DNA of 64,000 nt from Christensenellales bacterium (GCA_040767925.1 JAXGNN010000001.1:1486888-1550887), one strand, 5' to 3'; positions 14,350 through 57,957 are shown, counted from the first letter of the stretch. The notes: generated by a model from the letters alone, not told the origin. Numbers and translations are program-made.

Positions 14350-14380
14350 ATCTTGATTTATTCAACGTCGGAGACATTCA

Positions 14381-16837: not shown

Positions 16838-16888
16838 TGCCTTTGCTGATGAGCAGGGCGTTATTTTTATGCCCCGAATCACAAGGAG

Positions 16889-38776: not shown

Positions 38777-38840
38777 CGAACAACAAAAAACACAAGGCTT
38801 CCGAGCAATCGGGAGCTTTTTTGATTGGAGGGAAAACGAA

Positions 38841-41598: not shown

Positions 41599-41640
41599 AT
41601 ATCGGGCAATCGCTTCGGCGGTTGCCTTTTACATATCCCG

Positions 41641-43599
41641 ATGAAAGGAGAGGTGAAATTGAAAGATGTAAAAACAAGATCGTCAACAAAGACGCCGCGC
41701 ATATTGACGGAAACGGCAAGAGCGCCAAAGGAGCTTGCGCGTAAATCCATCATTGAATCCAAGGAAAAGGCAAAAGAGGTAGCCGAACGTCAGCAGCCGC
41801 AGGATGAATCGCCGGAGCAGTACGCTGAAAACCGCGTAGAGCAAACAGCCGAGGAAACCGTACACCGTGCAGGCGACGAGGTTTCCTATCAAGGCAGACA
41901 AATCGTTCAAAAGGCAAAGGACGCAAAGCGGAGCAGGGACAGCTTTGAGCAGCAAAGCAATCCCGCCTCGCGTTCCACAGCGGACGGAGGCGCGGCGCAG
42001 CCGAGCAACCCCGCCGCTTCAAGGGGCAACGCCGCCAATCAGACCAATGCCTACCGTGCGGGGCGGGAGCGCGTCATTCGCAACACGCAGACCGCACGGA
42101 ACACACGCTACACCGCAAGGTCGGCACAGCAGACGGCGCAGAGCGCGGAACGCACAGCGGCAGCTACAAAGAACGCTGTAAAGACCTCGGCGCGCACCGC
42201 CGTAAAGACCTCGCAGCAGAGCGTCAAGGTAACAAAGCATACCGTGAAAACGGCTGAGAAAGCCGCAGTCAAGACCGCTGAGGTGAGCGCAAAGCTCTCA
42301 CAAAAGGCAGCGCTGGCGGCGGCGAAAGCGGCACAGATGGCGGCAAAGGCAGCACAGGCCGCAGCAAAAGCGGCGGCGGCAGCGGCAAAGGCGGCGGCGA
42401 AAGCCATAGCTGCCATCATCAAGTGGATCGTCGCAGCGGTCAAGGCTTTGATAGCTGCTATCGCGGCGGGGGGCTGGGTGGCAGTTGTTATTATCGTTGT
42501 CGCGGCGTTGATTGCCGTGGTGCTGTGCCTGTGCTTCGGTGTGTTTTCCTCCAACGAGAGCGCGGACGGAACGCCCATGACGGACGCTATCGTTTCTATT
42601 GACGATGAGTTTACCGCTTCCATACAGGCACGGATTGACGAACTGACCGCAAGCGCCGACGCCGATGTGGTGGAAATCCTGTTTACGGGGGATATGGAGG
42701 ACGAGAATAGCTCCGTATCAAATTGGGTGGACGTGCTTGGCGTGTACTCGGTCTATGCTACCACGGGCGAAGATGCAGCGGAGGTCATATCGGTCACGCC
42801 CGAGAACATAGAGAAGCTCCGAACGGTTTTCTATGACATGAACAGCTTTTCAGTCACCACAGAAACCGAAACCGTTGAAGAAGTTGAGGTTGATGAGTAC
42901 GGCGCAATCGTGCTTGACGAGGATGGAGAACCGATAGTAAAAACCACCACGACCCTTTATATCAACATCGAGGTCACAAGCCTTGACTACCGCGACGGCG
43001 CGGACATATACGGCTTTGACGAGAGCCAAATGGAGATGCTCAAGGAAATCATGCGCCCCGACTATTACCCCCTGTTTGCCGAGCTTTGCGGGCAAACGCT
43101 TGGCGACGGCGGCGAATACGGGCTTGGTCTTGACATCAATCCCGACCTCCCGCCGAATGAACTCGGCGCGCAGATCGTACAGGCTGCAAAGCGTTATATC
43201 GGGCGCAGCTATTCGAGCATGGATTGCTCCGGCTTGGTGCGCGCAGCATACCGTGATTGCGGGCTGTCCTCCATGAACGGTCTGAACTCCGCTTCGATGG
43301 CGAAGAAGTGCCAAGAGATGGGCGTACTGTTCACCGACCCGTCGCAGTTACAATCGGGCGACATCATCTTCTTTGCCCGCAAGGACGCAAGGCGCGGCGA
43401 GGGCTACTGCACAGACCACAGACGATGCGGCAACGGACGCTGTAAGAGATGGATGCAGATTCACCACGTCGCCATCTACATCAACGGTGAGTTCCTTATC
43501 GACAGCACAGGCGGCAACAACTCTGTTCAGATCAGAAAGCATTGGGGCAAAAACGGCTCTGAGTGGCAATGGATTTGCTTTGGTCGCCCCACAAACTAA
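41641..43599 (+). CDS. T4SS-associated cell-wall hydrolase: Ala/Lys-rich region, TM segment, C-terminal NlpC/P60 domain
   Basis: GRSYSSMDCSGLVRAAY...GDIIFFA...HVAIYINGE (Cys-His NlpC/P60). The start is ambiguous (ATG 41641, GTG 41653, TTG 41659, all after or within AAAGGAGAGGTG). Confidence 0.85.
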   Translation: MKGEVKLKDVKTRSSTKTPRILTETARAPKELARKSIIESKEKAKEVAERQQPQDESPEQYAENRVEQTAEETVHRAGDEVSYQGRQIVQKAKDAKRSRDSFEQQSNPASRSTADGGAAQPSNPAASRGNAANQTNAYRAGRERVIRNTQTARNTRYTARSAQQTAQSAERTAAATKNAVKTSARTAVKTSQQSVKVTKHTVKTAEKAAVKTAEVSAKLSQKAALAAAKAAQMAAKAAQAAAKAAAAAAKAAAKAIAAIIKWIVAAVKALIAAIAAGGWVAVVIIVVAALIAVVLCLCFGVFSSNESADGTPMTDAIVSIDDEFTASIQARIDELTASADADVVEILFTGDMEDENSSVSNWVDVLGVYSVYATTGEDAAEVISVTPENIEKLRTVFYDMNSFSVTTETETVEEVEVDEYGAIVLDEDGEPIVKTTTTLYINIEVTSLDYRDGADIYGFDESQMEMLKEIMRPDYYPLFAELCGQTLGDGGEYGLGLDINPDLPPNELGAQIVQAAKRYIGRSYSSMDCSGLVRAAYRDCGLSSMNGLNSASMAKKCQEMGVLFTDPSQLQSGDIIFFARKDARRGEGYCTDHRRCGNGRCKRWMQIHHVAIYINGEFLIDSTGGNNSVQIRKHWGKNGSEWQWICFGRPTN

Positions 43600-43619
43600 A
43601 ACAGAAAGAGAGAAAGACT

Positions 43620-44288
43620 ATGAAACACTTTTCCCCTTTACAGAAAGCGGCGCTTGCCGTTCTTACGGTCATCGTTGTTGCACTCGCTATCGTTGCGTTT
43701 GCTACGGGCAAAAACCTCGCAATCGACCCCGTAGATATTGCTACGCCGACCTCCACGCCGGAGGTGTTCAAGATAGAGCTTGCGGGTACGCCAACGCCCT
43801 CGCCCGTGCCTGTCCCCATGCCAACGGCAACGCCGACAGCTTCTCCCTCGGCAAGTCCATCCGCAAGCGCAAAGCCTTCAAGCGGCAAACAGACCGATAC
43901 CTTTTGTACGCTCACCATCGGCGGAAAGGACATTCCCGTGCGCTATGGTGTAGATGAAAAGACGCTTGAAAAGTCCCCGGGCTACCTCCCATCCTCGGCT
44001 CTGCCGGGGGCGGAGGGTACTTGCGCCATCTACGGACACCGCAACCGCAATCATTTCAAGGTGCTGAAAGACGCGGAAATTGGCGACAGCATCAAGGTGA
44101 CAATGGCTGACGGAGCAGTCTATACCTACGCCATTACCGACATCACCATCTTTGAAAGCACCTCAGACTGGACGCTGCCCGCAACGGAGGGCAAAACGCT
44201 TGTGCTTGTAACGTGCTACCCGTTTCAGTACAGCGGTCATGCGCCCGGGAAGTGTGTGGTGACATCCCAGTATAGAGAAAGACCATAA
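43620..44288 (+). CDS. Sortase family transpeptidase
   Basis: N-terminal TM segment, Pro/Thr/Ser linker, YGHRNRNHF, TLVLVTCYP (TLxTC). Confidence 0.8.
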   Translation: MKHFSPLQKAALAVLTVIVVALAIVAFATGKNLAIDPVDIATPTSTPEVFKIELAGTPTPSPVPVPMPTATPTASPSASPSASAKPSSGKQTDTFCTLTIGGKDIPVRYGVDEKTLEKSPGYLPSSALPGAEGTCAIYGHRNRNHFKVLKDAEIGDSIKVTMADGAVYTYAITDITIFESTSDWTLPATEGKTLVLVTCYPFQYSGHAPGKCVVTSQYRERP

Positions 44289-44402: not shown

Positions 44403-45529
44403 TCAAGAATTACGCTGATGAAGGGTGATAAGGTTGTCGAGGTTGGTCAAGCATTCGCCAATCTTCTTCTGTTCATCTATATGTGGTAGCGGGATTGGCA
44501 TTTGAAAGAACAAATCGTCTTTGATAGAAAACCTGTCAGACCTTGCGCCGGAATCTCCGTTAAAGTTCATATAAGCGTGCCAATAGCGACTTTTGAAAAA
44601 ATGCTCAAGGAAGGTATTATCCACTTCGTGGGGTCTGAAAACCGTATAAAGTGGCGACATTACACCGTTTCTTCCTAATTTGTTTCGGTTTATCGGGCCA
44701 ACCGGAGCAGTGACAGAAATACGAGGGTTGTAAACAAAGTCCTCGCTTCGCACAATGTAGTACCCACCCAAACTTCCAATTTTCGAAATTGAGTGGTCAA
44801 AAAAGTCTTTCTGACTGATGATGCCAAACTCAGCCGAGTTTGTGAATGTTTCTATATATTGTAGTCCTGCGTTTTTCTCCGTAACCTTATCAGATATTTC
44901 CCCCAGCTTACGCTGTTCCCAAGGATGAGGGTGCTGGAATAACAGGGTGATTGGCTTGCGGAAGTATACATATCAGCGTTACGCTGATGAAGGGTGATAA
45001 GACGGTCAAGGTCGACGAAAAGCTGTCCGATTTGTGACTGCTCCCGCGAAGAAGCCGGATAACATACGGTCGTTTTGGCAAGGTTCGTCCGGCTGATTGA
45101 GAGAACTTTGATACCTTGCATGAGCGGTAATAGTTGTCGATGATACGAGGGTGAGTTCATGAAATAACCCAGATAATACTGCTGCATTTTCACCTTCGGT
45201 CTGCAAGCAATTGTATGCAAGCCCGACACCACAGGAATGCCTGCAATCCCTGCTATTTCAGTAGCTTTACCCACAGTTTCATCTTCGGCAGCGTCGGCAA
45301 TCAACACGTCACCGTCTTGGAGAAAAAGGCTCCGATAATCGGAAACTTCGGCTCCTGTAATGAATGGAATCATGTCAGTTTCGCAATCAGTTACAGCACC
45401 ATACTTGATGAGAATGTCGCCGTAGTGCACGCTCTTTATCTTGCCATCGTCGTAATTTAAATCCGCTCTCGTCAGGGTATTGTTTGGTATCGGGTCAAAT
45501 ACCATATTAAACTTACGCTGTTCCCAAGC
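44403..45529 (-). pseudogene. hsdS: Two promoterless/startless hsdS target-recognition-domain cassettes (silent hsdS'), inverted relative to hsdS
   Basis: - strand order is WEQRK-TRD(A)-LITLHQR, then out of frame WEQRK-TRD(B)-LITLHQRNS*. A TAA lies 3 codons before the first WEQRK. Repeats occupy 45512-45529, 44979-45001, 44907-44923 and 44410-44432. Confidence 0.8.
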
Positions 45530-45611
45530 ATTGTTTTACTGCGTTTATTTCAACTACTTTCGGCATACTTGAAAAACAGTAATTAACTCTGAAATACCGC
45601 AAATAATTGTG

Positions 45612-45645
45612 GATAATCATTATACCCCATGATATAATGATTATC
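45612..45645. promoter_or_regulatory. Perfect 13-bp inverted repeat operator containing TATAAT, upstream of the HTH gene
   Basis: GATAATCATTATA ccccatga TATAATGATTATC. Confidence 0.55.
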
Positions 45646-45686
45646 GGTATTTACTTACGATTAAAACAAGAGAAAGGATGAAGAAC

Positions 45687-45899
45687 ATGGCTGTCAGTTA
45701 TAAGAAGCTATGGCATATCCTGTTGGATCGTGATATGAAAAAGAAAGACTTGCAGCAGATGGCTAATCTAACAAGTTATGCGATGAGTAAGTTAAGTCGT
45801 GACGAAAACGTCACGACAGAAATACTTGGTAAGATTTGTTTGGCGCTCAACTGTACAACCGATGAAATAATGGAGTTTTTCCCAGATGACCATCAATAA
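45687..45899 (+). CDS. Small XRE/Cro-type HTH protein (putative controller of the R-M locus)
   Basis: MAVSYKKLWHILLDRDMKKKDLQQMANLTSYAMSKLSRDENV. The second ATG is preferred (SD spacing 9 nt). The track start is 45678. Confidence 0.75.
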   Translation: MAVSYKKLWHILLDRDMKKKDLQQMANLTSYAMSKLSRDENVTTEILGKICLALNCTTDEIMEFFPDDHQ

Positions 45900-45996
45900 G
45901 GCCGTTATTTGGCACAGTATTTCCGTTAGTCTGACGATGATTTTTGCTTGGTAAGTTAAACAAGATATAACAGACTTCGCTTTATGGAGGATACGA

Positions 45997-48561
45997 ATGA
46001 ATAAGCAACAACTTGCAAATAAAATCTGGGAATCTGCGAACAAAATGCGTTCCAAGATTGAAGCGAATGAATACAAGGACTATATTCTTGGCTTCATATT
46101 TTACAAATACCTCTCTGATACAGAGATAAAGTTCCTAAAGGAAAATGACTACACCGACGACTTACTCCCAACCGTGACTGAGGAAAATCCCGATAGAGTA
46201 AAATGGGTGCAACAAAACATAGGGTATTTTATTTCCTATACTGACCTCTTTTCGACATGGATCAATATGGGAAAAGACTTTGATGTATCAAATGTGCGTG
46301 ATGCGTTATCTGCTTTCAGTCGCTTAATCAGCCCATCACATAAGAAGGTGTTTGACGGTGTACTTGACACGCTTCAAACGGGACTGAGCAAACTCGGCGA
46401 CAGCTCCGGCTCTCAGACAAAATCCATCAGCGGTCTTTTGCAGCTTATCAAGGATATTCCGATGGACGGAAAGCAGGACTATGATGTTCTTGGCTTCATC
46501 TATGAGTATCTGATAAGTATGTTTGCTGCAAACGCAGGAAAAAAAGCCGGAGAGTTCTATACGCCCCACGAAGTATCCCTCTTGATGTCAGAAATTGTCG
46601 CTAACCATTTGAAGGGGAAAACCGAAATCAAGATTTACGACCCGACAAGCGGCTCCGGTTCCTTACTGATAAACATCGGACGGAGCGTAGCAAAGTATAT
46701 CAGTGACTCCGACAACATCAAATACTATGCTCAAGAATTGAAAGAAAACACCTATAACCTCACTCGCATGAATCTCGTTATGCGTGGCATTAAGCCTGAT
46801 AACATCGTAACGCGAAATGGGGATACGCTTGAGGAGGACTGGCCGTATTTCGATGAAAACGACCCGGTAAATACATATAACCCTCTTTATGTGGATGCTG
46901 TTGTATCAAATCCTCCATATTCGCAAGTATGGGATCCGACCAACAAAGAGGCTGATCCTCGCTATGCCCGTTTTGGTCTTGCCCCCAAAGGAAAAGCTGA
47001 CTATGCTTTCCTGCTTCACGACCTGTTCCATATCAGACCGGATGGAATTATGACCATTGTTCTTCCGCACGGTGTCCTTTTCCGTGGCGGTGAAGAAGGT
47101 ACTATCCGCAAAAACCTGATTGAAAATAACCATATTGACACAATTATCGGGCTTCCCGCCAATATCTTTTTCGGCACAGGCATCCCAACAATCATTGTGG
47201 TGTTAAAGCAAAAGCGCGAGAATACCGATGTATTGATTGTTGACGCTTCCAAAGGCTTCATCAAGGAAGGCAAAAACAACAAGCTGAGGGCTTCTGACAT
47301 TAAGAGAATTGCGGATACCGTAACAGAGCGAATCAGCGTCCCGAAGTTCTCGAGAGTTGTTAGCCGCGAAGAAATACGCGGCAACGAGTACAATTTGAAT
47401 ATCCCTCGCTATGTAGATTCTTCAGAGAGTGCAGAAAGCTGGGACATCTATGCTTCTATGTTTGGAGGAATCCCGAAAAGCGAGATTGATGAGATGTCTG
47501 CCTTTTGGACTGCATTTCCCAATTTGAAGGCGGCTTTGTTTGATGATGACGGAACTCCGTATGTAAGTGTTGCCGCAACTGATATAAAGTCGGCTATCAA
47601 AACAAACGCTGATGTTGTCAGCTTTGAAAGTGGGTTTAATTCAGCCTTTTCAAGTTTTCCTGCTTTCCTGAAACAGACTTTGATTGACGGAGTTTCTTCG
47701 GTGGAGATCAACCGAGCCGAAGCGGTCATCAGCGAAGATATTTTCGCTCGTTTGGCAGGTATTCCGCTTATAGACAGATATGAAGCCTATCAGCTGTTGT
47801 ACGATGAATGGACACGCATCGCTATCGACTTGGAAATCATTCAGACAGAGGGATTTGCTGCCACGAAAAAGGTTGACCCAAATCTTGTTTTGAAGAAGAA
47901 AGATGGCAAAGACCAAGAGGTACAAGAAGGCTGGGTTGGACATATAATGCCATTTGACCTTGTCCAGTCAACTCTCCTGCGTGAAGAAAAAGCCGAGCTG
48001 TCACAAATGGAAAGTCGCCTTGCTGAAATACCGTCTGCTTACGAAGAAATTGCCGATACTCTTACCGAAGAAGAAAAAGAGGGCGAATTCTATGCCGATG
48101 ATTCATTTGTAGGCAAAGAGATTACAAAGAAACTGAAAGAACTGAGAGCAGATAAATCGCCGGAAGCCATTCAGTTGAAAGAAAAACTGAATCGTGTTGA
48201 TGTGCTTATGCAGGAAGAGAAGGAACTCAAAGCTCTAATCAAGAAAGCCGATGCTGCACTTCAGGCAAAGACGAAAACAACGATTGAGGGGCTAACTGAC
48301 GATCAGGTTCGTATGTTGCTTGAAAAGAAGTGGATTGATACGCTTGTTTCAAACCTTAAAAAGATGCCGGATACCCTGATTGACACTCTTGTAGCTAAAA
48401 TTCTGGCACTTGAAAGCAAGTACAACACTACTTTCTTTGAAGTAGAAACTCAGATTCAGGATACGGAAGCACAATTGGCGTCGATGATTGATGAACTGGA
48501 CGGCAGCGAATTTGATTTGAAAGGACTCGGCGAGTTCAAATCGCTGTTGGCGGGTAAATAA
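45997..48561 (+). CDS. hsdM: Type I R-M methyltransferase subunit HsdM with about 380-aa C-terminal extension
   Basis: HsdM-N region, GEFYTP, DPTSGSGSLL, NPPYS. The usual near-C-terminal NLNIPRYVD lies at about aa 470 of 854. Confidence 0.9.
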   Translation: MNKQQLANKIWESANKMRSKIEANEYKDYILGFIFYKYLSDTEIKFLKENDYTDDLLPTVTEENPDRVKWVQQNIGYFISYTDLFSTWINMGKDFDVSNVRDALSAFSRLISPSHKKVFDGVLDTLQTGLSKLGDSSGSQTKSISGLLQLIKDIPMDGKQDYDVLGFIYEYLISMFAANAGKKAGEFYTPHEVSLLMSEIVANHLKGKTEIKIYDPTSGSGSLLINIGRSVAKYISDSDNIKYYAQELKENTYNLTRMNLVMRGIKPDNIVTRNGDTLEEDWPYFDENDPVNTYNPLYVDAVVSNPPYSQVWDPTNKEADPRYARFGLAPKGKADYAFLLHDLFHIRPDGIMTIVLPHGVLFRGGEEGTIRKNLIENNHIDTIIGLPANIFFGTGIPTIIVVLKQKRENTDVLIVDASKGFIKEGKNNKLRASDIKRIADTVTERISVPKFSRVVSREEIRGNEYNLNIPRYVDSSESAESWDIYASMFGGIPKSEIDEMSAFWTAFPNLKAALFDDDGTPYVSVAATDIKSAIKTNADVVSFESGFNSAFSSFPAFLKQTLIDGVSSVEINRAEAVISEDIFARLAGIPLIDRYEAYQLLYDEWTRIAIDLEIIQTEGFAATKKVDPNLVLKKKDGKDQEVQEGWVGHIMPFDLVQSTLLREEKAELSQMESRLAEIPSAYEEIADTLTEEEKEGEFYADDSFVGKEITKKLKELRADKSPEAIQLKEKLNRVDVLMQEEKELKALIKKADAALQAKTKTTIEGLTDDQVRMLLEKKWIDTLVSNLKKMPDTLIDTLVAKILALESKYNTTFFEVETQIQDTEAQLASMIDELDGSEFDLKGLGEFKSLLAGK

Positions 48562-49769
48562 TGATGGAAAACACGAAAAAACCTGCTATCAGATTCAAAG
48601 GTTATACGGAAGCTTGGGAACAGCGTAAGGTTGGAGAACTGGCTTCTGTGTCGATGAACAGAAGAATATTTAAGGAACAAACGACGGAAGCTGGAGATGT
48701 CCCATTCTTCAAAATCGGAACCTTTGGAGGAACGCCCGACGCCTATATTTCAAGAAAACTTTTTGAGGAATACAAAGAGAAATATCCATATCCAAAAGTT
48801 GGGGACATCTTAATTTCTGCGTCTGGAAGTATTGGCAGAACCGTTGAATATAGCGGAAAAGACGAGTATTTTCAAGACTCCAACATAGTATGGCTCAATC
48901 ACGACGAACAAATAGATAACTCTTTTTTGAAATGCTTTTACGCCGTTGTAAAGTGGGCTGGAATTGAAGGCAGTACCATCAAGCGACTGTATAATGACAA
49001 TATTTTAAGTACGGAAATCTGCTTGCCAACAGTTGAAGAACAGCAGCAAATCGGAACATATTTCAAGCAACTCGACCACCTTATCACCCTTCATCAGCGT
49101 AAGAGTGACAGATTGCAGAATGTCAAGAAGTCGATGCTTGAAAAAATGTTTCCAAAATCCGGAAGCATATTTCCTGAAATACGTTTCAAGGGATTTACTG
49201 ATGCTTGGGAACAGCGTAAGCTATCCGACATAGCAACAGAAGTTAACAGGAATGACCCGGAATCTTCTGCTCCCATAATGATGATAACTGCAAATAATGG
49301 GTTTATCGAACAGTCGGAAAGGTATGCTTTTAACAACGCTGGCGAAAGTCTAAAGAAATATATTCTGCTTAAAAGAGGTGAGCTAGCGTATAATCACGGC
49401 GCATCCAAGCTCCGCCCTTATGGTTCCTGCTTTTCATTAACAACAGCCGAAAACGCTCGTATCCCCTTTGTTTATCACTGTTTTGCAATAGGAGAAAACG
49501 ATCCGGAATTTGTATCTACGGAGCTGAATGGTTCGAGAATTGAAGGACAGCTCAGGAAGATTGTTTCCTCCGGTGCGAGGATGGATGGGCTGCTCAATAT
49601 TTCGTTTGAAGAATACAGCTGTGTTGAACTTATGCTTCCAAGCGTACCCGAACAAGAAATGATTTCAACCTTTTTTCGTAGCATCGACAACCTTATCACC
49701 CTTCATCAGCGTAAGTTGGAAAAGCTAAAAAACATCAAAAAGTCAATGCTTGAAAAGATGTTTGTATGA
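48561..49769 (+). CDS. hsdS: Type I R-M specificity subunit HsdS (two TRDs, expressed copy)
   Basis: The start overlaps the hsdM stop. Conserved blocks FKGYTEAWEQRK / FKGFTDAWEQRK and LITLHQRK...KKSMLEKMF occur twice. Confidence 0.9.
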   Translation: MMENTKKPAIRFKGYTEAWEQRKVGELASVSMNRRIFKEQTTEAGDVPFFKIGTFGGTPDAYISRKLFEEYKEKYPYPKVGDILISASGSIGRTVEYSGKDEYFQDSNIVWLNHDEQIDNSFLKCFYAVVKWAGIEGSTIKRLYNDNILSTEICLPTVEEQQQIGTYFKQLDHLITLHQRKSDRLQNVKKSMLEKMFPKSGSIFPEIRFKGFTDAWEQRKLSDIATEVNRNDPESSAPIMMITANNGFIEQSERYAFNNAGESLKKYILLKRGELAYNHGASKLRPYGSCFSLTTAENARIPFVYHCFAIGENDPEFVSTELNGSRIEGQLRKIVSSGARMDGLLNISFEEYSCVELMLPSVPEQEMISTFFRSIDNLITLHQRKLEKLKNIKKSMLEKMFV

Positions 49770-49788
49770 CTTGGAAAGGAGAATCACT

Positions 49789-52700
49789 ATGGCATTTACA
49801 AAAGAAGCTGATTTTGAAGAAGCTTTAATTAAAATCCTTTCCAACAAAGGATGGGAAAAAGAAGTTCTGAGCCATCCAACGGAGCAGGACTTGATAGATA
49901 ACTGGGCAAAAATCCTCTACGAGAATAACAGAGGAATTGACAGATTGAACAACTATCCGCTTACAAACAGCGAAATGCAGCAGATTATTGATCAAATCAA
50001 CACTCTGCGCACTCCCTTGAAGTTGAACAGCTTTATCAACGGTAAAACCGTTTCTATCAAGAGAGATAACCCTGATGATGCTGCCCATTTAGGCAAGGAA
50101 GTCAGCCTGAAAATCTATGACCGCAGAGAAATCGCAGCTGGCCAAAGTCGTTATCAAATTGTTCAGCAACCCCTCTTTCCAACGAAGTCAAAGATACTCA
50201 ATGATCGCCGTGGGGATTTAATTCTCCTGATTAACGGAATGCCTGTCATTCATATCGAACTAAAGAAAAGCGGTATTCCGGTCAGTCAAGCGTGTAATCA
50301 GATTGAGAAGTATGCTCACGAGGGTATTTTCACAGGATTGTTTTCGCTTGTGCAAATCTTCGTTGCTATGACACCGGAAAGCAGCAGATACTTTGCAAAT
50401 CCGGGTCCGGACGGGAAATTCAACGCTGACTATTACTTCAACTGGGCGGATTTTGATAACGAGCCGATAAACGACTGGAAAGTTATTGCCTCCAATCTAC
50501 TGTCTATCCCGATGGCTCATCAGATGATCGGCTTCTACACGGTTGCCGACAACTCCGATGGGATTTTGAAAGTGATGCGCAGCTATCAGTTCTATGCTGC
50601 AAGTGCGATCTCTGATAAGGTATCTAAAACCCACTGGGAAAAAGGAAACCAGCGTGGCGGATACATCTGGCACACTACTGGCTCCGGCAAAACAATGACT
50701 TCCTTTAAGTCGGCTCAGTTGATAGCAAACTCCAAAGATGCGGATAAGGTTATCTTTCTTACCGACCGAATCGAGCTTGGCACACAGTCGCTGAAAGAAT
50801 ACAGAGCCTTTGCTGACGAGAACGAAAGTGTTCAGGCTACGGAAAATACATATATCCTCATAACCAAACTAAAGAGTATAGATGCAGCGGACACGCTGAT
50901 AGTCACCTCTATTCAGAAAATGAGCAACATCAAGAGTGAAGAAGGCGGATTGAACGCTAACGATCTTGAAACCATCAACAAGAAACGGATTGTATTTATT
51001 GTTGATGAAGCGCATCGCTCAACTTTTGGAGATATGCTTATTACGATCAAGGAAACATTCTCAAACGCAATCTTCTTTGGTTTTACCGGAACTCCTATTC
51101 AGGAGGAAAATCAAAAGAAAGGCAGCATGACGCTGGATGTTTTCGGGGATGAACTACACAGATACAGTATAGCGGATGGTATCAGAGATAAGAATGTCCT
51201 TGGATTTGACCCTTACAAGGTTTTGACATTCAAAGATTCCGACATTCGCAGACAAGTGGCATTGGGAAAAGCAAAAGCCGCCAATGTTGACGAAGCATTG
51301 AATGACCCCCAAAAAGCATCTGTATACTACAAATACTTGGATACCGCCCATGTCCCGATGGCCTCCTATATCGGAAACGATGGCAAGAAAGTCATAGGAA
51401 TCGAAGATGAAATACCTTTCTCTCAATATAGAACAGAGGAACATAGAGCAAAGGTTGTTGAGGACATTCTCGATAAATGGCAAGACCTGAGCCACAACAG
51501 TAAATTCCATGCTATCTTCGCCACAAGCAGTATTCCGGAAGCCATTGAATACTACCGCGTATTTAAGTCACAGACGCCCAACTTGAAAGTGACTTGTTTG
51601 TTTGACCCGAATATCAGTAACGAAGACGGCGACTATAAGGAGTACAAAGGAACGAAGGTTTCTCTGTTCAAGGAAACAGGGTTGGAAGAAATCATTAGCG
51701 ATTACAATGCTTTGTTTGAACAGGATTTCACCATTGCTTCACACGCTGCCTTTAAGAAGGATATTTCCTTCCGTTTGGCACATAAAGAGCAATACAAATG
51801 GATTGACAGATTTCCCGAGAAGCAGTTAAACCTCTTGATCGTTGTTGACCAAATGCTCACGGGTTTTGACTCCAAGTGGGTGAATACTCTTTATTTGGAT
51901 AAAATGCTTGAGTACGAAAACATCATTCAAGCATTCTCCAGAACCAATCGCTTGTTTGGTCCCGATAAACCGTTTGGTACAATCAGGTATTACCGTAAAC
52001 CGCATACAATGGAAAAGAACATAGAGGCCGCGGTAAAGCTCTACTCCGGAGATAAGCCAATCGGTTTGTTTGTTGAGAAGCTCGGCTACAACATCAAGAA
52101 GATGAATGACGTCTATCAGGAGATTACAAGCCTCTTTGCGAGTGCTGGTGTTCCTGATTTTGAGAAACTTCCTGATGAGCCGTCGGTAAAAGCTAAATTT
52201 GCATCTCTGTACAGAGATTTCAACGCATTCCTCGAAGCTGCAAAGGTACAAGGATTCACTTGGGAAGAATACACTTATATAGACGAGAGTACGGGACAAG
52301 TAATAACCGTAGCTCCAGACTTTAATGAAACCGATTATCTGATTCTTGCACAGAGGTATAAAGAACTCTCTATGTCTGTTGATCCTACTGAATCGGGTGA
52401 TGATGATGTTCCGTATGATTTGGTTGGCTATCTAACCGAAATAGACACTGGTAGAATTGATGCCGATTATATGAACAGCAGATTTGATAAATATCTGAAG
52501 CTCATACATCAGGACAATGCCTCTGTCGAAGCACAGGAGCAAGCACTGAGTGAGTTGCACAAAACCTTTGCCGCGCTAACACAGGATGAACAGAAGTATG
52601 CGAATATCTTTTTGCACGATGTTCAACGTGGAGATGTGGTCGTTGAGGACGGTAAATCCCTGCGTGACTATATAACAGAGTATCAGTATCGAGCAAAGAA

Positions 52701-52956
52701 TGACCAGATTCATCAATTTGCCGTAACCTTCGGAATTGATGAAGATAAACTTCGGAATATGATGAGTTTAAACTTGTCTGAAAACAACATTAATGAGTTT
52801 GGACGTTTTGATGAGTTGAAACGCACCTTTGACAAGGCAAAAGCCAAATCATATTTTGAAAACACAGAAGTGATAATCCTTTCACTCCCCGACGTAAACA
52901 TGAAAATGGATGGTCTTCTTCGAGATTTCATAATAAATGGCGGACGTGAGCTTTAA
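49789..52956 (+). CDS. hsdR: Type I restriction endonuclease subunit HsdR
   Basis: AAGGAG SD before MAFTKEADFEEAL. Nuclease-region DLILLINGMPVIHIELK. TGSGKT, DEAH (VDEAHRS), helicase C. Confidence 0.9.
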   Translation: MAFTKEADFEEALIKILSNKGWEKEVLSHPTEQDLIDNWAKILYENNRGIDRLNNYPLTNSEMQQIIDQINTLRTPLKLNSFINGKTVSIKRDNPDDAAHLGKEVSLKIYDRREIAAGQSRYQIVQQPLFPTKSKILNDRRGDLILLINGMPVIHIELKKSGIPVSQACNQIEKYAHEGIFTGLFSLVQIFVAMTPESSRYFANPGPDGKFNADYYFNWADFDNEPINDWKVIASNLLSIPMAHQMIGFYTVADNSDGILKVMRSYQFYAASAISDKVSKTHWEKGNQRGGYIWHTTGSGKTMTSFKSAQLIANSKDADKVIFLTDRIELGTQSLKEYRAFADENESVQATENTYILITKLKSIDAADTLIVTSIQKMSNIKSEEGGLNANDLETINKKRIVFIVDEAHRSTFGDMLITIKETFSNAIFFGFTGTPIQEENQKKGSMTLDVFGDELHRYSIADGIRDKNVLGFDPYKVLTFKDSDIRRQVALGKAKAANVDEALNDPQKASVYYKYLDTAHVPMASYIGNDGKKVIGIEDEIPFSQYRTEEHRAKVVEDILDKWQDLSHNSKFHAIFATSSIPEAIEYYRVFKSQTPNLKVTCLFDPNISNEDGDYKEYKGTKVSLFKETGLEEIISDYNALFEQDFTIASHAAFKKDISFRLAHKEQYKWIDRFPEKQLNLLIVVDQMLTGFDSKWVNTLYLDKMLEYENIIQAFSRTNRLFGPDKPFGTIRYYRKPHTMEKNIEAAVKLYSGDKPIGLFVEKLGYNIKKMNDVYQEITSLFASAGVPDFEKLPDEPSVKAKFASLYRDFNAFLEAAKVQGFTWEEYTYIDESTGQVITVAPDFNETDYLILAQRYKELSMSVDPTESGDDDVPYDLVGYLTEIDTGRIDADYMNSRFDKYLKLIHQDNASVEAQEQALSELHKTFAALTQDEQKYANIFLHDVQRGDVVVEDGKSLRDYITEYQYRAKNDQIHQFAVTFGIDEDKLRNMMSLNLSENNINEFGRFDELKRTFDKAKAKSYFENTEVIILSLPDVNMKMDGLLRDFIINGGREL

Positions 52957-52970
52957 CATGATGTTCTAAG

Positions 52971-53150
52971 ATGTGCCAAATTACTTGTTTTCAACTGAAT
53001 GATGAATATTATTCAGATATTGCACGAGAGTCAAGGATTTTCCTTGGCTCTTTTCCTTTATCTTGGGAACAGCGTAAGGTTCGAGAAGTTGCCGACAGAT
53101 ATGATATGAGTATTCCGCGCAAGATTGAGCATCGCCACCGGACAAGTTGA
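52971..53150 (+). pseudogene. hsdS: Truncated hsdS 5' remnant (59-aa ORF) in direct orientation
   Basis: ...FPLSWEQRKVREVADRYD, then unrelated sequence and a stop. It carries CTTGGGAACAGCGTAAGGTT at 53062-53081, identical to 48613-48632. Confidence 0.65.
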
Positions 53151-53198
53151 GCATCGATTCCGGCGAGATTGAGCATGGGTTCCGCACAGGTTGAGCAC
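53125..53198 (+). repeat. Four TTGAGCA(T/C) motifs at an exact 22-bp period (iteron-like)
   Basis: Motif starts at 53125, 53147, 53169 and 53191. Unit approximately TTGAGCATSGNNTCCGSNNRRR. Confidence 0.7.
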
Positions 53199-53372: not shown

Positions 53373-53801
53373 TTAAGAAATCACACCAACTTTCAAAAAT
53401 GGCGGTCTTATCTTCATTTTGGGCAAGTTGGTAGTTAATATCCTGAAAGCGGATTGTTTCAAAATGGTTTCCCTGCTCATGGCATTGACAAGAGATACTT
53501 CCATGCCTGAAAGTTCAATACTTGCAGGGAGTAAATCTACACCCTCTATATGAGGCAAGATACCCTCTTTATTGATAATGGAAGTATCAGTAATTACTTT
53601 GCCCATAAGAGTGGAAAGGGTTGTTTCAAGCCGGTCAGGTTGTGGATGTCCTAAACTGATAGACAAGCTACCTTGTGGGTCGCTATCTACTAACAGAACC
53701 TTCTTGCCCTCAAGGGCTAAGCCTATGCCCAAGTTGACACAGGTGGTTGTTTTGCCTACGCCACCTTTTTGGTTGGCAATGGCGATGATTTTTGCGTTCA
53801 A
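53373..53801 (-). pseudogene. parA: Truncated second parA (N-terminal about 115 aa conserved, then divergent tail)
   Basis: [44 protein letters not shown]...[10 protein letters not shown] aligns with the ICE ParA. It lacks the IIDCPPSLG region and the C-terminal half. Confidence 0.75.
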
Positions 53802-54056: not shown

Positions 54057-54164
54057 TTAATTCGCTTTTACAATTGGAACCCATAACTCCATTTCATAGT
54101 CAGGACTATCCATGTTCCCTTCGCTGTAAACCTCAAAATCAGGTGTTGAATACGGCGGCTTGGA
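54057..54164 (-). pseudogene. C-terminal fragment of a GyrI-like (AraC effector-binding) domain gene abutting the IS21 end
   Basis: The - strand reads SKPPYSTPDFEVYSEGNMDSPDYEMELWVPIVKAN*. Confidence 0.55.
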
Positions 54165-54309
54165 ATTGACAGCGGAGGCGGCGAGATTTTACACCTCTGG
54201 GCGGGCCAGATTTACACCTCCGGGCGGCCATATTTTACAGTAGATACCGCTGTAGTAGAATTTGGCTAACGCATCGCAGATGCGAATACGCCAAAGGAGG
54301 GTCATAGAA

Positions 54310-55307
54310 ATGACCAACTACAGAGAGATCCTGCGGTTGAGGAGTCTGGGCCTCAACCACAGCAGGATAGCAGAGAGTATGGGAATTTCCCGTCCAACAG
54401 TAATTGCAGCACTACAGCGAGCTCAGGCTCAGGAGCTAAACTGGCAGACAGCAGAGTCTCTATCGGATATAGATTTGGCTCAGAGGCTTAATCCAGCCGT
54501 TGGAGGTAAGCCCAGCTACAAGCTCCCGGACTACGAGTATATCCATCGCGAATTGGCCAAGCCCGGCATGACACAGCAGTTGCTGTGGTTTGAGTACTGC
54601 GACCAATGCCGCGCATCAGGCGAGATCCCGTACCAACTTACCCAGTTCAAGACTCATTACCGCGAGTACGTAGCAAAAACCAAAGCCACGATGCACATCC
54701 AGCGCAAGCCCGGAGAACTGATGGAGGTAGACTGGGCGGGGCAGACTGCGCATTTGGTCGATGCCGACACAGGCGAACTGCTCGACGCTTACATCTTTGT
54801 CGCAGCGTTGCCGTACAGCGGCTACGCTTATACTGAGGCCTTCATGAACCAGGAGCAGGAGGCGTGGATCACTGCTCACGCCAACGCTTACAGCTTCTTT
54901 GGCGGTGTTACCCGCATCCTCACGCCGGACAACCTGAAAACCGGCGTCATCAAGAATACTCGTTCAGAGCTTGTCCTGAACAAAAGCTACCAGGAGCTGG
55001 CCGAGCATTATGGCACAGCGATTATTCCAGCCCGTGTAAGGTCCCCGAAGGACAAGGCGACGGTAGAAGGCACAGTTGGCAACATCTCATCGTTCATTCT
55101 GGCATCTATTCGAAACCAGACCTTCTTCAGTCTGAAAGAGCTGAACAATGTAATCCGCGAGAAGCTACACGCCTTCAACCATAAGCCGTTTCAGAAGAAG
55201 GACGGTAGCCGGGCGACATGGTTTGCTGAGGAACGTTCCTTTTTGCTTCCCTTACCGCGCAACTCCTACGAGCTGTCAGTCTGGAAAACGGCAACGGTGT
55301 CTTTCAA
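54310..55307 (+). pseudogene. istA: istA transposase, 5' part (interrupted by IS256-like insertion)
   Basis: AAGGAGGG SD before MTNYREILRLRSLGLNHSRIAESMGISRPTV. The reading frame is broken at 55307/55308. Confidence 0.85.
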
Positions 55308-56668
55308 GGTACTGTCAATAGTTTTGCGCAAATAGATATTACCGCCTGGTAAGCGTCGGCTATCCGGCAGAAACGGTGGTATTCTGAAGCTCGTTGAGAG
55401 CCTTCATACACATGTAACGCTTTGTTCCCCAAACCGTGCTGACGACATGCCGGAGTCTGGCGCAAACCAGCATCAGTGCGGAATGCCCATCAGGGAATGT
55501 ACCGACCACCTTTGTCCGTCGGCGGATCTCACGGTTTAAGCGTTCCAGCACATTTGTCGTCCGGAGTTTTGTCCAATGGGTAGACGGGAAATCCATGTAG
55601 GTCAGCGTTTCTGCAATACCCTTTTCTACCTTATCCGCTGCCTCACGGAGCTTCATTTCCCGCAGCTTGGCAGCAACCGCAGCTGCCTTCTCCAGCGCTG
55701 CATCTTTGTCTTCTTGTGCGTGGATTGCTTTGAGCATTGCTGCCACCTGATTCATTTTCCCGCGCGGGACTTTCGAAAATACATTCCGGTAAAAGTGTAC
55801 GACGCAACGCTGATATTTGGCTTCTGGGAAGACGTCGTTTACCGCTTCCAGAAGGCCCAGGCATCGATCACCAATAAACAGCTGTGTCCCATGCAGACCG
55901 CGTTCTTTCAGACCTACGAGGAACGACCGCCAACTTTCCTTATCTTCCTTTATTCCTTCGGCGGTTCCGATCACTTCCCTGTATCCATCCTCATTTACCG
56001 CCATGGCTACCAGAATCGCTACGTTCTCATATTCGCCGCCCCAATTGCGTTTTAGGTAGATTCCATCAAGATATACGTAGGGATATTCATACTGGAGCCT
56101 ACGCGAGCGCCATTCCTCAATATGGCTGTAAACCTTCTTGTTCAGGTTGCTGATCGTTCCGGGAGATACCTTGGTGCCCCACAGTGCTTCGGTGATATCT
56201 TCTACTCTTCGTACTGATACCCCGGCCAAGTACATCTCGATCAGGGCTTCCTCAACCGAGGACTCGCGCCGTTGATATCGTTCAATAATCGCTGTTTCAA
56301 ATGCGACGCCCTTGAGCTTTGGCATTTTAAGCTTCACATCCCCTGACGTCGTCTGAAAGTTTCGCTCGTAATGCCCGGCACGGTAGCCCTGACGATCCTG
56401 TGTCCGTTCATACTTCTCGGCATTGGTCAAGGATTTTGCCTCTTCGTCCAGCAGACCGTTGATCGTCTCTTCCACGCTTGTGCGCACCAAATCCTTTAAT
56501 TCCTGCTTTATCATTCCTTCGTTTAATTGTATAATCTTATCGGTGGACATTGTGTGTTGCCTCCTCTGCAAAGTCTTTGTTTCGCAACTTTTACTTTACC
56601 AGACGGCGGCACACTTGTCCTCCTTTTTTCGTGCCTATTTCAATTTGCGCAACTTATTGTACCTTATC
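55308..56668 (-). mobile_element. IS256-family insertion sequence (1361 bp) with 8-bp target-site duplication TCTTTCAA
   Basis: TSD copies at 55300-55307 and 56669-56676. 26-nt imperfect terminal IRs (GGTACTGTCAATAGTTTTGCGCAAAT / GATAAGGTACAATAAGTTGCGCAAAT). Removing the element restores ...ATVSFNYHIAVDEQ in istA. Confidence 0.9.
55360..56550 (-). CDS. IS256-family (mutator-type) transposase
   Basis: GAGGAGG SD before MSTDKIIQLNEG. YLDGIYLK...VAMAVNEDGYREV...FIGDRCLGL...RCVVHFYRN motifs. Confidence 0.9.
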   Translation of the reverse strand: MSTDKIIQLNEGMIKQELKDLVRTSVEETINGLLDEEAKSLTNAEKYERTQDRQGYRAGHYERNFQTTSGDVKLKMPKLKGVAFETAIIERYQRRESSVEEALIEMYLAGVSVRRVEDITEALWGTKVSPGTISNLNKKVYSHIEEWRSRRLQYEYPYVYLDGIYLKRNWGGEYENVAILVAMAVNEDGYREVIGTAEGIKEDKESWRSFLVGLKERGLHGTQLFIGDRCLGLLEAVNDVFPEAKYQRCVVHFYRNVFSKVPRGKMNQVAAMLKAIHAQEDKDAALEKAAAVAAKLREMKLREAADKVEKGIAETLTYMDFPSTHWTKLRTTNVLERLNREIRRRTKVVGTFPDGHSALMLVCARLRHVVSTVWGTKRYMCMKALNELQNTTVSAG

Positions 56669-56676
56669 TCTTTCAA

Positions 56677-57208
56677 CTACCACATCGCCGTAGATGAGCA
56701 ATACTATTCCGTTCCATATGAATACATCAAGCGTAAGGTCGATGTCCGCGTGACCCGAAATACAGTTGAGGTGTTCTACGACGGCAGCAGGATATGTTCT
56801 CACGTCCGTCTGCATGGCCGTCGCGGTCAATACAGCACGGTGGAAGAACATATGCCGCCTCAGCATCAGCAGTATATACAGTGGAACGGCGAACGCTTCC
56901 GGAAATGGGCTTCTCAGATCGGTTCCAATACCGCCACAGTGGTGGACGCAATTCTTACAGGCTACAAAGTGGAGCAGCAGGGCTACCGAGCCTGTATGGC
57001 GTTGCTAAAGCTTTCCGAGCAGTACACGAAGGAACGGCTGGAAGCAGCCTGTGCCAAGGCTCTTTTCTACACGCCGCGTCCCAGCTACAAATCCATTCAA
57101 ACCATACTGAAGTCCGGTCAGGACAAGAAAACGGATGAACATCCTCAGATTTCCTCCCAATACGGCTTTACTCGCGGCGCCGATTACTACAAGGGAGGGC
57201 AAGACTGA
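56677..57208 (+). pseudogene. istA: istA transposase, 3' part
   Basis: NYHIAVDEQYYSVPYEYIKRKVDVRV... continues the 5' part in frame (998 + 532 nt = 510 codons). Confidence 0.85.
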
Positions 57209-57957
57209 TGCTGAACAATACTACGACCACCAAGCTGCACGAAATGAAGCTGAGCGCAATGGCCACGGCTTTTCGGCATCAGAGTGAAACGGACGGTTTC
57301 AGCGAACTCTCCTTTGAGGAGCGTTTCGGCTTGCTCGTGGATGCGGAGTGGACTTCACGGCGAAACAACCGGCTCACACGCCTGCTCAAAAAAGCCGGTT
57401 TCTCAGAGCCTGGAGCCTGTCTCGAAGACATTGAGTACCACGCCGACAGAAAGCTGGATAAAGCTTTCATCACCCGGCTCGGCTCCTGCAATTACATCGA
57501 CGAGAACCACAATGTCATCATCCTCGGAGCCACCGGCAGCGGTAAAACCTACATCGCCAACGCCTTGGGCGTGACCGCCGGGCGTAACTTCTACCCCGTC
57601 CGCTATGTACGGCTGCCGGATCTGCTCGCCGAGCTGTCCATAGCGAGGGCTGAGGGCAACTACCGCAAGGTCATGAAGGGATACCGGCAGGCCAGACTTT
57701 TGATTCTGGATGAATGGTTGCTCTACCCACTCAAGGACAGTGAGGCCAGAGATTTGCTTGAGCTGACGGAGGCTCGCTACAAAAAAGCCTCGACTATATT
57801 CTGCTCACAATTCGACGTAGGCGGATGGCACCAGAAGATCGGAGAGGCGACCCTTGCCGACGCCATCTGCGACCGCATCGTTCACGACTCCTACCGCATC
57901 GTCATCGGCGGCGAAGATTCCATGCGAAAACGGAAAGGCATTTCCGAGAACGACTGA
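57208..57957 (+). CDS. istB: IstB helper ATPase
   Basis: The ATG overlaps the istA stop. Walker A GATGSGKT. LLILDEW. Confidence 0.9.
   Translation: MLNNTTTTKLHEMKLSAMATAFRHQSETDGFSELSFEERFGLLVDAEWTSRRNNRLTRLLKKAGFSEPGACLEDIEYHADRKLDKAFITRLGSCNYIDENHNVIILGATGSGKTYIANALGVTAGRNFYPVRYVRLPDLLAELSIARAEGNYRKVMKGYRQARLLILDEWLLYPLKDSEARDLLELTEARYKKASTIFCSQFDVGGWHQKIGEATLADAICDRIVHDSYRIVIGGEDSMRKRKGISEND

Follow-up and report, generated by a model that had tools for sequence, protein, structure and literature searches.

A Type I R-M cassette shufflon on a conjugative element, apparently deleted for its downstream array and recombinase gene, is most likely locked

How would a Type I R-M locus exchange the TRDs of its specificity gene when the DNA to be inverted carries the methylase gene itself and no recombinase is encoded beside it? 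The question is raised by a locus within a 64-kb window (the whole stretch of DNA analysed), in which a first-pass annotation had identified an hsdS cassette shufflon, with two expressed and two silent TRDs bounded by the repeats W and L. That identification holds. Our preferred reading, to which we give a probability of roughly 0.75, is that this is a TRD-cassette shufflon of a Type I R-M system on a conjugative element, and that deletion has removed a downstream array and the recombinase gene, leaving the copy most likely locked.

All three subunits of a Type I (EcoR124/IC-like) R-M system, HsdM, HsdS and HsdR, were identified on the plus strand of the locus. Upstream of the genes, an imperfect palindrome (45598–45659) contains a promoter-like consensus match (TGGATA-17-TATAAT with an extended TG, 45610–45638); it is likely to be the operator/promoter of the HTH–hsdM operon and would lie inside the invertible segment. 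The first gene of this invertible ‘head’ encodes a Cro/C1-type HTH regulator (45678–45899; HTH_26, Pfam E = 1.7e-16), which is kept upstream of hsdM in shufflon-type relatives and is probably a C-protein-like controller. The 854-aa HsdM (45997–48561; Pfam HsdM_N and N6_Mtase, E = 7e-100) passes the curated NCBIfam hsdM model TIGR00497 (328 bits, cutoff 242.75). Its residues 1–485 resemble the EcoR124II M subunit (PDB 7bst, E = 1.7e-73), and residues 486–854, for which the comparison with PDB 7bst gave no match, form an extension conserved within the family of loci described below. The expressed hsdS (48561–49769, 402 aa; two Methylase_S stretches, Pfam E = 1.3e-30) runs from a 5′ constant part through W1 (48613–48629), TRD1 and L1 (49080–49102) to a central conserved region, W2 (49204–49220), TRD2, L2 (49692–49714) and a C-terminal helix, so that HsdS shows the WEQRK...LITLHQRK pattern two times, along with helices at the centre and the C-terminus. 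The ATG of hsdR lies at 49789, 19 nt past the hsdS stop, and a promoter scan found no consensus promoter for hsdR in the 500 bp upstream; the 1,055-aa HsdR (49789–52956; Pfam HSDR_N, SWI2_SNF2, T1R_D3-like and EcoR124_C) passes NCBIfam TIGR00348 (343.8 bits, cutoff 284.55).

The W and L repeats are real, exact and non-random, and they bound four intact TRD cassettes, two expressed and two silent. W (CTTGGGAACAGCGTAAG) has five exact copies, three on the plus strand (48613, 49204 and 53062) and two on the minus strand (44907 and 45512), against 0.00 copies expected by chance in 100 dinucleotide-preserving shuffles. L (CTTATCACCCTTCATCAGCGTAA) has four exact copies (49080 and 49692, plus; 44410 and 44979, minus), again against 0.00 in shuffled sequence. 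The analysis reproduced all of the coordinates in the first-pass annotation. At 100% identity, the inverted pairs of L span 23 and 31 nt, the longest being a perfect match between 44410–44440 and 49684–49714, and one W pair spans 20 nt. Inverted repeats that are exact, in frame and as long as Atack et al. require (at least 20 bp) are thus present within hsdS coding sequence in the window. Read in frame, W encodes AWEQRK and L encodes LITLHQRK, both conserved HsdS motifs, and synonymous positions are identical throughout all copies. Both sites match the family consensus and are conserved at the nucleotide level family-wide, even where HsdM is only ~70% identical; identity inside the window is therefore no proof by itself of recent recombination here.

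The silent cassettes lie on the minus strand upstream of the head. Cassette A (44979–45528; W′ 45512–45528, L′ 44979–45001) is an intact 181-aa open frame. Cassette B (44403–44923; W′ 44907–44923, L′ 44410–44432; Pfam Methylase_S, E = 4.5e-7) ends in ‘...LITLHQRNS*’ and lacks a start codon, the N-terminal conserved region and the C-terminal conserved helix. Read from 45528 to 44979 and from 44923 to 44410, each gives a stop-free WEQRK...LITLHQR, and neither includes the 17-aa N-terminal conserved segment. Between them, a minus-strand, out-of-frame linker of 55 bp (44924–44978) stands where a real hsdS has its central conserved coiled-coil region of ~108 bp. When TRD-A and TRD-B were joined in a synthetic HsdS query, single halves, either TRD A or TRD B, matched full-length HsdS proteins elsewhere at ~80% identity. 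The promoter scan gave no strong match reading into the silent cassettes, and the locus thus shows the pattern used in surveys of at least two hsdS sequences, the extra ones without a start or promoter. Decay of these cassettes, which the first-pass annotation had named as grounds for abandoning its reading, is not what we find: the two TRDs have open frames of 169 and 181 codons. Open silent frames are compatible with either recent loss or continued use.

To place the locus, we compared it with at least 160 related loci (L001–L160), which define a family sharing the same HTH regulator, the 854-aa HsdM, W and L sites, and cassette arrays that reach about seven TRDs. HsdM from the window aligns with those of its relatives over the full length at 67–94% identity, and the layout ‘<T <T HTH hsdM T> T> hsdR’ recurs among them, the window resembling L008, L035, L051, L066 and most of L081–L146. 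By these comparisons, the window holds a member of a widespread gut-Clostridia family in which the methylase gene is flipped together with the cassettes. One relative, L066, also sits on the conjugation backbone found in the window, matching it at 81% for 6 kb up to the sortase gene; beyond that gene its layout is the complete ‘<T <T HTH M S R T> T> REC’, with array and recombinase kept.

Comparison of arrangements between isolates and between metagenomes reveals cassettes on the move. Between L008 and L035, which come from isolates of two different species and are 99.2–100% identical in nucleotide sequence, cassette blocks whose ends coincide exactly with W and L differ in order and orientation, with exchange between the expressed and the upstream silent positions. 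Contigs from gut metagenomes draw on a common TRD repertoire found at every position. In 8 related contigs, hsdM and hsdR are on opposite strands, bearing out the claim in the first-pass annotation that any W/W or L/L inversion flips the HTH–hsdM–5′hsdS block, and about 8 contigs are in an ‘hsdM T REC’ state. The HsdS products of relatives in the flipped state lack the C-terminal helix.

When inversions of the window were simulated, each of the eight single inversions that can occur truncated HsdS, which lost the C-terminal conserved helix, and uncoupled hsdR, so a single inversion would not yield a working new hsdS as had been supposed. All simulated recombinants remain in frame, and aberrant 44-aa tails in them derive from the 55-bp linker. 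Two nested inversions again place a working hsdM–hsdS operon colinear with hsdR and give eight functional-looking alleles, four two-TRD chimeras and four of half size, making the earlier figure of ‘up to four specificities’ too low. Because two inversions are needed and restore colinearity, the proposed uncoupling of restriction stands for the single inversion and is confined to a predicted OFF intermediate, rather than accompanying each new specificity.

Which enzyme would catalyse these inversions is suggested by the relatives. Their downstream array is followed by a gene for a recombinase of ~308 aa (Pfam Phage_integrase, E about 1e-20), found in 18 of the first 80 loci in copies 73–100% identical. 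Among the 43 loci whose flanks reach 7.5 kb or more to each side of hsdM, the recombinase is present in all 13 with inverted cassettes, a count whose weight is overstated by phylogenetic non-independence, and absent from 21 of the 22 without extra cassettes. The idea of a recombinase-free design is thus contradicted by every complete relative with inverted cassettes, each of which encodes this recombinase beside its arrays.

The window itself does lack the gene, as the first-pass annotation had reported. Pfam searches of 60 ORFs (most of those of at least 180 aa, selected smaller ones and two short ones in the locus, leaving out a few overlapping and probably spurious ORFs of 180–200 aa) found no tyrosine or serine recombinase, and seven family recombinases used as tblastn queries on all 64 kb gave a best E of 0.13, with no remnant. 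What follows hsdR points to how the gene was lost. A terminator-like hairpin with a 12-bp stem (53026–53052, plus strand) aligns with L001, L051, L026 and L035, where the hairpin leads the downstream silent array. This hairpin and the W leader are kept in the window, and the array ends 38 nt past W. The third W copy, at 53062, is present as first described, and its earlier reading was incomplete: it belongs to a stub of the first downstream silent cassette (53062–53116, plus strand), consisting of W3 (53062–53078) and 38 nt of TRD behind the conserved hairpin. The TRD part of the stub can be aligned up to 53116 with cassettes of the same TRD type in L094 and L042, the match to L001 (94% HsdM identity) stops at 53095, and DNA beyond 53116 matches none of the relatives. 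The breakpoint at ~53116/53117 adjoins mosaic DNA with a parA fragment and nested IS elements. These alignments indicate that the downstream array and the recombinase gene were lost by deletion. The closest copies of the locus have HsdM identities of 94% in genomes and, among the matches listed, 79% in metagenomes; as none of these is near-identical, the ancestral state is inferred from relatives.

We propose that the locus is cargo of a Clostridial conjugative element, placed beside its sortase gene, and belongs to a family in which a mobile ‘expression head’, made up of the promoter, the HTH regulator, hsdM and the 5′ portion of hsdS, is flanked by arrays of promoterless TRD cassettes that face in opposite directions. 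The ~308-aa tyrosine recombinase, encoded at the array end, would catalyse W × W and L × L recombination. A first inversion would flip the head, joining 5′hsdS to a silent cassette without the distal conserved helix and leaving hsdR on the other strand; such single-inversion intermediates are predicted to be OFF. A second, nested inversion would restore the hsdM–hsdS–hsdR operon with a new TRD. With the downstream array and recombinase gene deleted, the window copy is most likely locked in its present specificity, held at TRD1 plus TRD2 with two intact silent cassettes stranded, unless a paralogous recombinase elsewhere acts in trans.

That exception is the alternative that deserves the closest attention: a still active shufflon, driven by a putative same-family or other tyrosine recombinase encoded outside the 64-kb window. 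Every copy of W and L is exact and both silent cassettes are intact. Further, since the sites persist at ~70% HsdM identity, the enzyme of a paralogue should recognise them, and one MAG has two family loci (L028 and L052), which together make action in trans plausible. There is precedent as well: a survey (PMC7672463) accepts invertase-negative invertons served in trans, and HvsR of Mycoplasma pulmonis serves hsd loci far from its own gene. Against this, the recombinase is encoded in cis in every one of the 13 complete relatives that have inverted cassettes, and the downstream array of the window copy shows physical decay; we consider continued switching in trans unlikely.

Two further explanations dispense with a site-specific recombinase or with shuffling altogether. 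Host homologous recombination or template switching might act on the inverted repeats, as the pneumococcal spnIII locus rearranges without CreX or the other site-specific recombinases tested (PMC6620402). Those events used repeats of 85 and 333 bp, however, compared with 17–31 bp here, and inversions at 15-bp repeats fell to 0.0% without CreX (PMC6620402). Every complete relative with inverted cassettes has, moreover, kept a dedicated recombinase, which leaves recombinase-independent switching very improbable. Finally, the upstream cassettes could be a decaying second hsdS that was never shuffled, its motifs shared through protein conservation only; W and L do encode conserved HsdS motifs, and the central conserved region is missing between the two cassettes. 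Yet protein conservation does not account for the identity of all synonymous positions, the TRDs are open over their whole length, and silent pairs joined by the same short linker are also seen in relatives with demonstrable cassette permutation at W and L. This explanation, already disfavoured, we regard as scarcely tenable. A deleted and most likely locked shufflon thus remains our preferred reading.

How does the locus compare with known systems? Like the ‘epigenetic invertons’ or ‘inverting Type I loci’ of two REBASE/NCBI surveys (Huang et al. 2020, PMC7672463; Atack et al. 2020, PMC7394358), it has multiple hsdS sequences including silent copies, and identical inverted repeats within them. 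The adjacent site-specific invertase by which inverting loci are also recognised is absent from the window. The absence of a local recombinase is not in itself new: the survey of Huang et al. 2020 explicitly reports invertase-negative loci with multiple hsdS genes and describes HvsR acting in trans (PMC7672463). Those main texts treat hsdM as a non-invertible anchor, with PCR primers placed accordingly, whereas hsdM is invertible here, and we found no description in them of the invertible-head layout or of this family (PMC7672463; PMC7394358).

The pneumococcal SpnD39III/ivr (cod) locus is similar in having one expressed hsdS with silent, promoterless partial copies (PMC6620402; PMC4190663) and in carrying in-frame inverted repeats both ahead of the TRDs and between them. 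Its short-repeat (15-bp) inversions depend on CreX (PMC6620402), and this locus-encoded tyrosine recombinase, CreX/PsrA, has a counterpart in the relatives of the window but not in the window copy. In SpnD39III/ivr, however, inversion is limited to 3′ parts of hsdS and does not include hsdM, whereas here the promoter–HTH–hsdM–5′hsdS block is what inverts; each cassette is a single TRD with W at one side and L at the other, and a pair of nested inversions is required. Two nested inversions also swap the middle segment of the BREX gene pglX in Lacticaseibacillus rhamnosus (Milman et al. 2023, PMC9881135), where one-inversion intermediates lose the C-terminus and bring the recombinase gene directly downstream of the expressed gene (PMC9881135). 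These intermediates match the ‘hsdM T REC’ states of the relatives, but PglX is a BREX methyltransferase rather than a Type I HsdS, and no methylase-carrying head is flipped there relative to a nuclease gene.

Work by Dybvig and Yu in 1994 and by Dybvig and colleagues in 1998 reportedly placed hsdM and hsdR of M. pulmonis between two inverted hsdS genes, with inversions that flip hsdM. In contrast to that hsd1/hsd2 arrangement, hsdR in the window lies outside the head and becomes uncoupled. Some M. pulmonis hsd rearrangements abolish R-M activity (PMC4948785), and HvsR can be encoded away from the locus (PMC7672463). The family of the window differs from M. pulmonis in its arrays of up to about seven TRDs, its recombinase family, its sites (W and L rather than vip and hrs), its vehicle, a conjugative element, and its hosts, the Clostridia.

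Two short in-frame sites, W (CTTGGGAACAGCGTAAG) and L (CTTATCACCCTTCATCAGCGTAA), bound each target recognition domain (TRD) cassette of the restriction-modification locus. Repeat and exact-pattern searches found five exact copies of W (at 48613, 49204 and 53062 on the forward strand and at 44907 and 45512 on the reverse strand) and four of L (49080 and 49692, forward; 44410 and 44979, reverse), with 0.00 copies of each expected in shuffled sequence. Every repeat listed in the first-pass annotation was thus reproduced, and the extension of L that it had put at about 31 bp is a perfect inverted match of 31 nt between 44410-44440 and 49684-49714. Pfam and NCBIfam searches place a Cro/C1-type HTH gene (45678-45899), hsdM (45997-48561, 854 aa), a two-TRD hsdS (48561-49769) and hsdR (49789-52956) on the forward strand. 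Residues 1-485 of HsdM and the C terminus of HsdR resemble EcoR124, making the system Type IC-like. The remaining HsdM residues, 486-854 (47455-48561), form a C-terminal extension of about 370 aa whose length is kept throughout the 160 relatives, where HsdM totals 841-872 aa. Searched against PDB sequences it matched nothing, and its one Pfam match, to DUF885, was weak and fell below threshold.

The two startless TRD cassettes reported upstream of hsdM are borne out by translation. On the reverse strand, both frames are open from WEQRK to LITLHQR (45528 to 44979 and 44923 to 44410), with no sign of the decay that would have made them inert; both lack the 17-aa N-terminal constant segment, and a 55-bp, out-of-frame linker separates them in place of the central coiled-coil region. 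A promoter-like site with a palindrome (45598-45659) lies within the invertible head, the block comprising promoter, HTH regulator, hsdM and the 5′ end of hsdS. hsdR starts 19 nt past hsdS and has no consensus promoter match in the 500 bp before it, in agreement with the earlier proposal that it lacks a promoter of its own.

To place this locus among its relatives, we searched with HsdM, collected 80 loci from reference genomes and at least 80 from metagenomes, and mapped HsdM, HsdR, HTH and the TRD cassettes in every one. The closest of these, L001, lies on an Oscillospiraceae chromosome and encodes an HsdM 94% identical to that of the window. No near-identical copy of the locus in another arrangement was found: 94% was the best HsdM identity in genomes, metagenomes gave at most 79% among the matches listed, an exact-sequence look-up of HsdM returned no record, and the plasmid collection held a single weak hsdM match (74.5%). 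A synthetic HsdS assembled from the 5′ part, TRD-A, the central region, TRD-B and the C terminus retrieved relatives at 70-84% from the protein database, including full-length proteins with both TRD types (for example P0032, 73% over 100%), none close enough to represent an alternative state of the window locus.

Among the relatives one layout recurs: one to three inverted silent cassettes, HTH-hsdM-hsdS(TRD,TRD)-hsdR, one to three direct silent cassettes and an ORF of about 308 aa, which is a Phage_integrase-family tyrosine recombinase (Pfam E ~1e-20; Xer-like in NCBIfam). Human-gut Clostridia commonly carry this family, which moves between species on conjugative elements and holds up to about seven interchangeable TRDs. 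For the 43 loci extending 7.5 kb or more to both sides of hsdM, the recombinase is encoded in 13/13 with inverted cassettes and missing from 21/22 without extra cassettes (Fisher exact p ~1e-8, a value whose real weight is lower given the shared phylogeny of the loci). Inverted cassettes without a recombinase occur in 24 loci, all of them cut by a contig end. In one relative, L066, two silent cassettes and the recombinase are fused in a single 722-aa ORF (14926-17094; Methylase_S plus Phage_integrase), whereas in other relatives the recombinase gene begins about 25 nt past the last cassette.

Several alignments bear on how the window copy came to differ from this layout. Past hsdR comes a leader conserved in the family (53026-53078), consisting of a hairpin with a 12-bp stem and then W. 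The 38 nt after this third W match the opening of a TRD type present in L094 and L042, as far as 53116, beyond which nothing matches any relative. Homology to L001 stops at 53095, a point past which L001 itself has a cassette followed by the recombinase gene. The best comparator is L066 (nt 408-6457), which matches window positions 38229-44260 at 81%, indicating a common conjugation backbone that ends at the sortase gene; past the sortase of L066 come two inverted cassettes, the HTH-hsdM-hsdS-hsdR genes, two direct cassettes and finally the recombinase. In the window, the ORFs scanned (most of those of at least 180 aa) revealed no tyrosine or serine recombinase, and tblastn with seven family recombinases detected no remnant, so the recorded absence of a recombinase stands. 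The simplest reading of these alignments is that the shufflon would be a regular cargo of this conjugative-element family and that the window copy probably lost its downstream array and recombinase gene by deletion. The third W, previously taken for a separate direct repeat, is by leader and TRD homology the stub of that array, and the idea of a recombinase-free design does not hold. As a putative truncated copy of an ordinary recombinase-driven shufflon, the locus calls for no new inversion mechanism.

The surrounding DNA is that of a mobile element. A Firmicute-type conjugative element occupies ~15-44.3 kb (ParA/ParB, relaxase, coupling protein, VirB4-like ATPase, NlpC/P60 hydrolase and sortase), and the restriction-modification island begins ~115 bp past the sortase gene, with a G+C of 0.40-0.44 versus 0.50-0.57 in the conjugation genes immediately upstream. 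No tRNA gene, and no integrase at the element's edge, was found within the window. A stretch of ~1.9 kb (12500-14400), with chromosomal-looking genes on one side and the element's NADAR/ParA/ParB start on the other, has no ORF above 110 aa and no tRNA or integrase nearby; G+C drops there from ~0.6 to ~0.47, and it may be the element's boundary. Within the element, a 2435-aa ORF (22159-29466) has SNF2/ResIII helicase motifs in its C-terminal third only, the other ~1600 residues being unannotated. Large helicase-type anti-restriction or entry-protection proteins are frequent on such elements, and this ORF may encode one.

To the right of the island the DNA is a mosaic of 22-bp repeats, a parA fragment and an IS21-family element interrupted by an IS256-family transposase gene. 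The three and a half tandem 22-bp repeats (53119-53197; consensus about GNNAGRTTGAGCATNGNNNCCG) occur in none of the relatives; they begin 2 nt past the end of the stub, thereby marking a deletion or insertion junction, and could be another element's end or partition-site repeats. A truncated ParA-type ATPase gene follows on the reverse strand (53373-53801), with ParA homology over ~116 residues and unrelated sequence thereafter; at only 51% amino-acid identity, it is not an inverted duplicate of the element's own parA (15109-15924). The IS21-family element (54160-57957) has repeated AGATTTTACACCTC motifs at its left end and comprises an N-terminal istA part (54262-55335), a C-terminal part (56423-57208) and istB (57208-57957), split by an intact IS256/Mutator-family transposase gene on the reverse strand (55360-56571). 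The IS21 elements of L001 and of the window share no nucleotide homology, which rules out IS21 as a common cause of deletion.

Is the window copy still switching? In pneumococcus lacking CreX, inversions between 15-bp repeats fall to zero and only the 85-bp and 333-bp repeats recombine (PMC6620402). Because the window repeats measure 17-31 bp, and the pneumococcal 15-bp repeat needs its recombinase, the copy is probably no longer switching. The main competing explanation, that a paralogous recombinase still inverts it in trans, has points in its favour: the nucleotide sequences of W and L are kept throughout the family, two family loci may share a single genome (L028 and L052), both silent cassettes in the window have stayed open, and trans-acting invertases and invertase-negative loci are documented (PMC7672463). 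We nevertheless consider trans action unlikely and prefer a copy that has ceased to switch.

The relatives display many states. The loci of L008 (Hominicoprocola fusiformis CLA-AA-H269) and L035 (Flintibacter faecis BX5) share 99.2-100% nucleotide identity with their blocks permuted: a TRD that occupies expressed position 2 in L035 is an inverted, silent upstream cassette in L008, another shows the reverse, and the recombinase gene is inverted and relocated. All block boundaries fall within W or L repeats, and the linkers are unmoved. Such identity across isolates of two species indicates recent horizontal transfer. Gut-metagenome contigs hold a common TRD repertoire (T1-T28 and more), found in every possible position. 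hsdR has the orientation of hsdM in 84 loci; in eight (L082, L097, L111, L112, L119, L138, L139 and L142) it is upstream of the head and on the other strand, capturing the state, envisaged in the first-pass annotation, in which a flipped hsdM-hsdS diverges from hsdR. In flipped states the predicted HsdS lacks the conserved C-terminal helix. About eight contigs have the order hsdM-TRD-(TRD)-recombinase, of which at least two (L081 and L102) carry hsdM-hsdS-recombinase with no hsdR within the locus sequence, which fits excision between direct W/L repeats. Another locus, L122, has two hsdS-hsdR units in a tandem duplication (hsdR T T hsdR) that looks like a product of recombination between direct W/L repeats.

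Short contigs offer a further view of these boundaries. Several, L021 among them, consist of the head alone with W as the exact terminus at each end, which suggests that the assembly graph branches at W. In four contigs from metagenome-assembled genomes (3.1-5.9 kb) the left end repeats the right exactly in reverse complement, as terminal inverted duplications of 20, 56, 119 and 141 nt; L019 and L021 (the latter with 20 nt) comprise HTH-hsdM-5′hsdS alone, and L003 and L047 reach into downstream cassettes. The pattern looks like what an assembly graph leaves at an invertible segment, or where the flanking cassettes are identical. Because k-mer-length duplications can also come from the same TRD lying at either side, or from mixed strains, we regard these as suggestive and did not accept them as proof of within-sample inversion.

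Simulating inversions on the window's own sequence clarifies how such states could interconvert. All eight possible single inversions (inverted with direct W, or inverted with direct L) join the 5′ end of hsdS to a cassette with no C-terminal helix on its far side, giving HsdS tails of ...LITLHQRNS* or a 44-aa out-of-frame peptide, and all eight leave hsdR on the other strand. The canonical HsdS C terminus and the 19-nt spacing to hsdR are regenerated by exactly two inversions, which yield four new two-TRD chimeras and four half-size alleles. Natural half-size alleles, of 189-209 aa with one TRD and the canonical C-terminal helix, lie immediately upstream of hsdR in L083, L104, L123, L134, L140 and L145; one would expect their products to form dimers with palindromic targets. 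The earlier expectation that any inversion would swap TRDs, for up to four specificities, therefore fails for single inversions, which truncate HsdS, and four is an undercount, since two inversions already give the four chimeras and the four half-size alleles. Likewise, the proposed uncoupling of restriction from modification at each specificity change applies to the first inversion, which moves hsdR to the other strand, and is undone by the second. Since single inversions truncate and two restore, changing specificity is a two-step process.

The mobile part of the switch would be the promoter-controller-hsdM-5′hsdS head. A single inversion would truncate HsdS, cut hsdR from its only promoter and, in array-end states, put the recombinase gene behind the expressed hsdS; the resulting intermediate is predicted to lack both modification and restriction (OFF). 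In some intermediates among the relatives the recombinase gene does lie about 25 nt behind the expressed hsdS, a placement that could speed resolution. The joint reading, to which we assign a probability of roughly 0.3, is that each specificity change passes through a restriction-null, recombinase-high, self-resolving intermediate, with the window copy a locked derivative or one switched in trans by a paralogue. If true, the restriction-null intermediate would be a built-in safeguard against self-restriction. A similar two-step logic, with unstable one-inversion intermediates, has been described for a BREX pglX locus (PMC9881135).

For the window, the result is corrective. For the family, public assemblies show many states, including hsdM divergent from hsdR and hsdR absent, and two cultured isolates carry the locus. 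An abundant, mobile family with members in culture opens an old question to direct test: how the specificity of a Type I system can change while its own chromosome escapes restriction. Surveys or PCR designs that use hsdM as a fixed anchor would overlook or misread these loci, whose assemblies break at W/L boundaries.

The window locus has the published hallmarks of inverting Type I systems, except a local invertase (PMC7394358, PMC7672463). Inverting Type I loci are known, and the window copy is a truncated member of a family set apart by the placement of the hsdM head within invertible DNA. Unlike the pneumococcal, Bacteroides, Enterococcus and Treponema examples, whose studies treat hsdM as a fixed anchor, the family has hsdM, its promoter and the HTH regulator inside the invertible DNA. 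Mycoplasma pulmonis hsd1, in which hsdM and hsdR lie between inverted hsdS genes, is a partial precedent.
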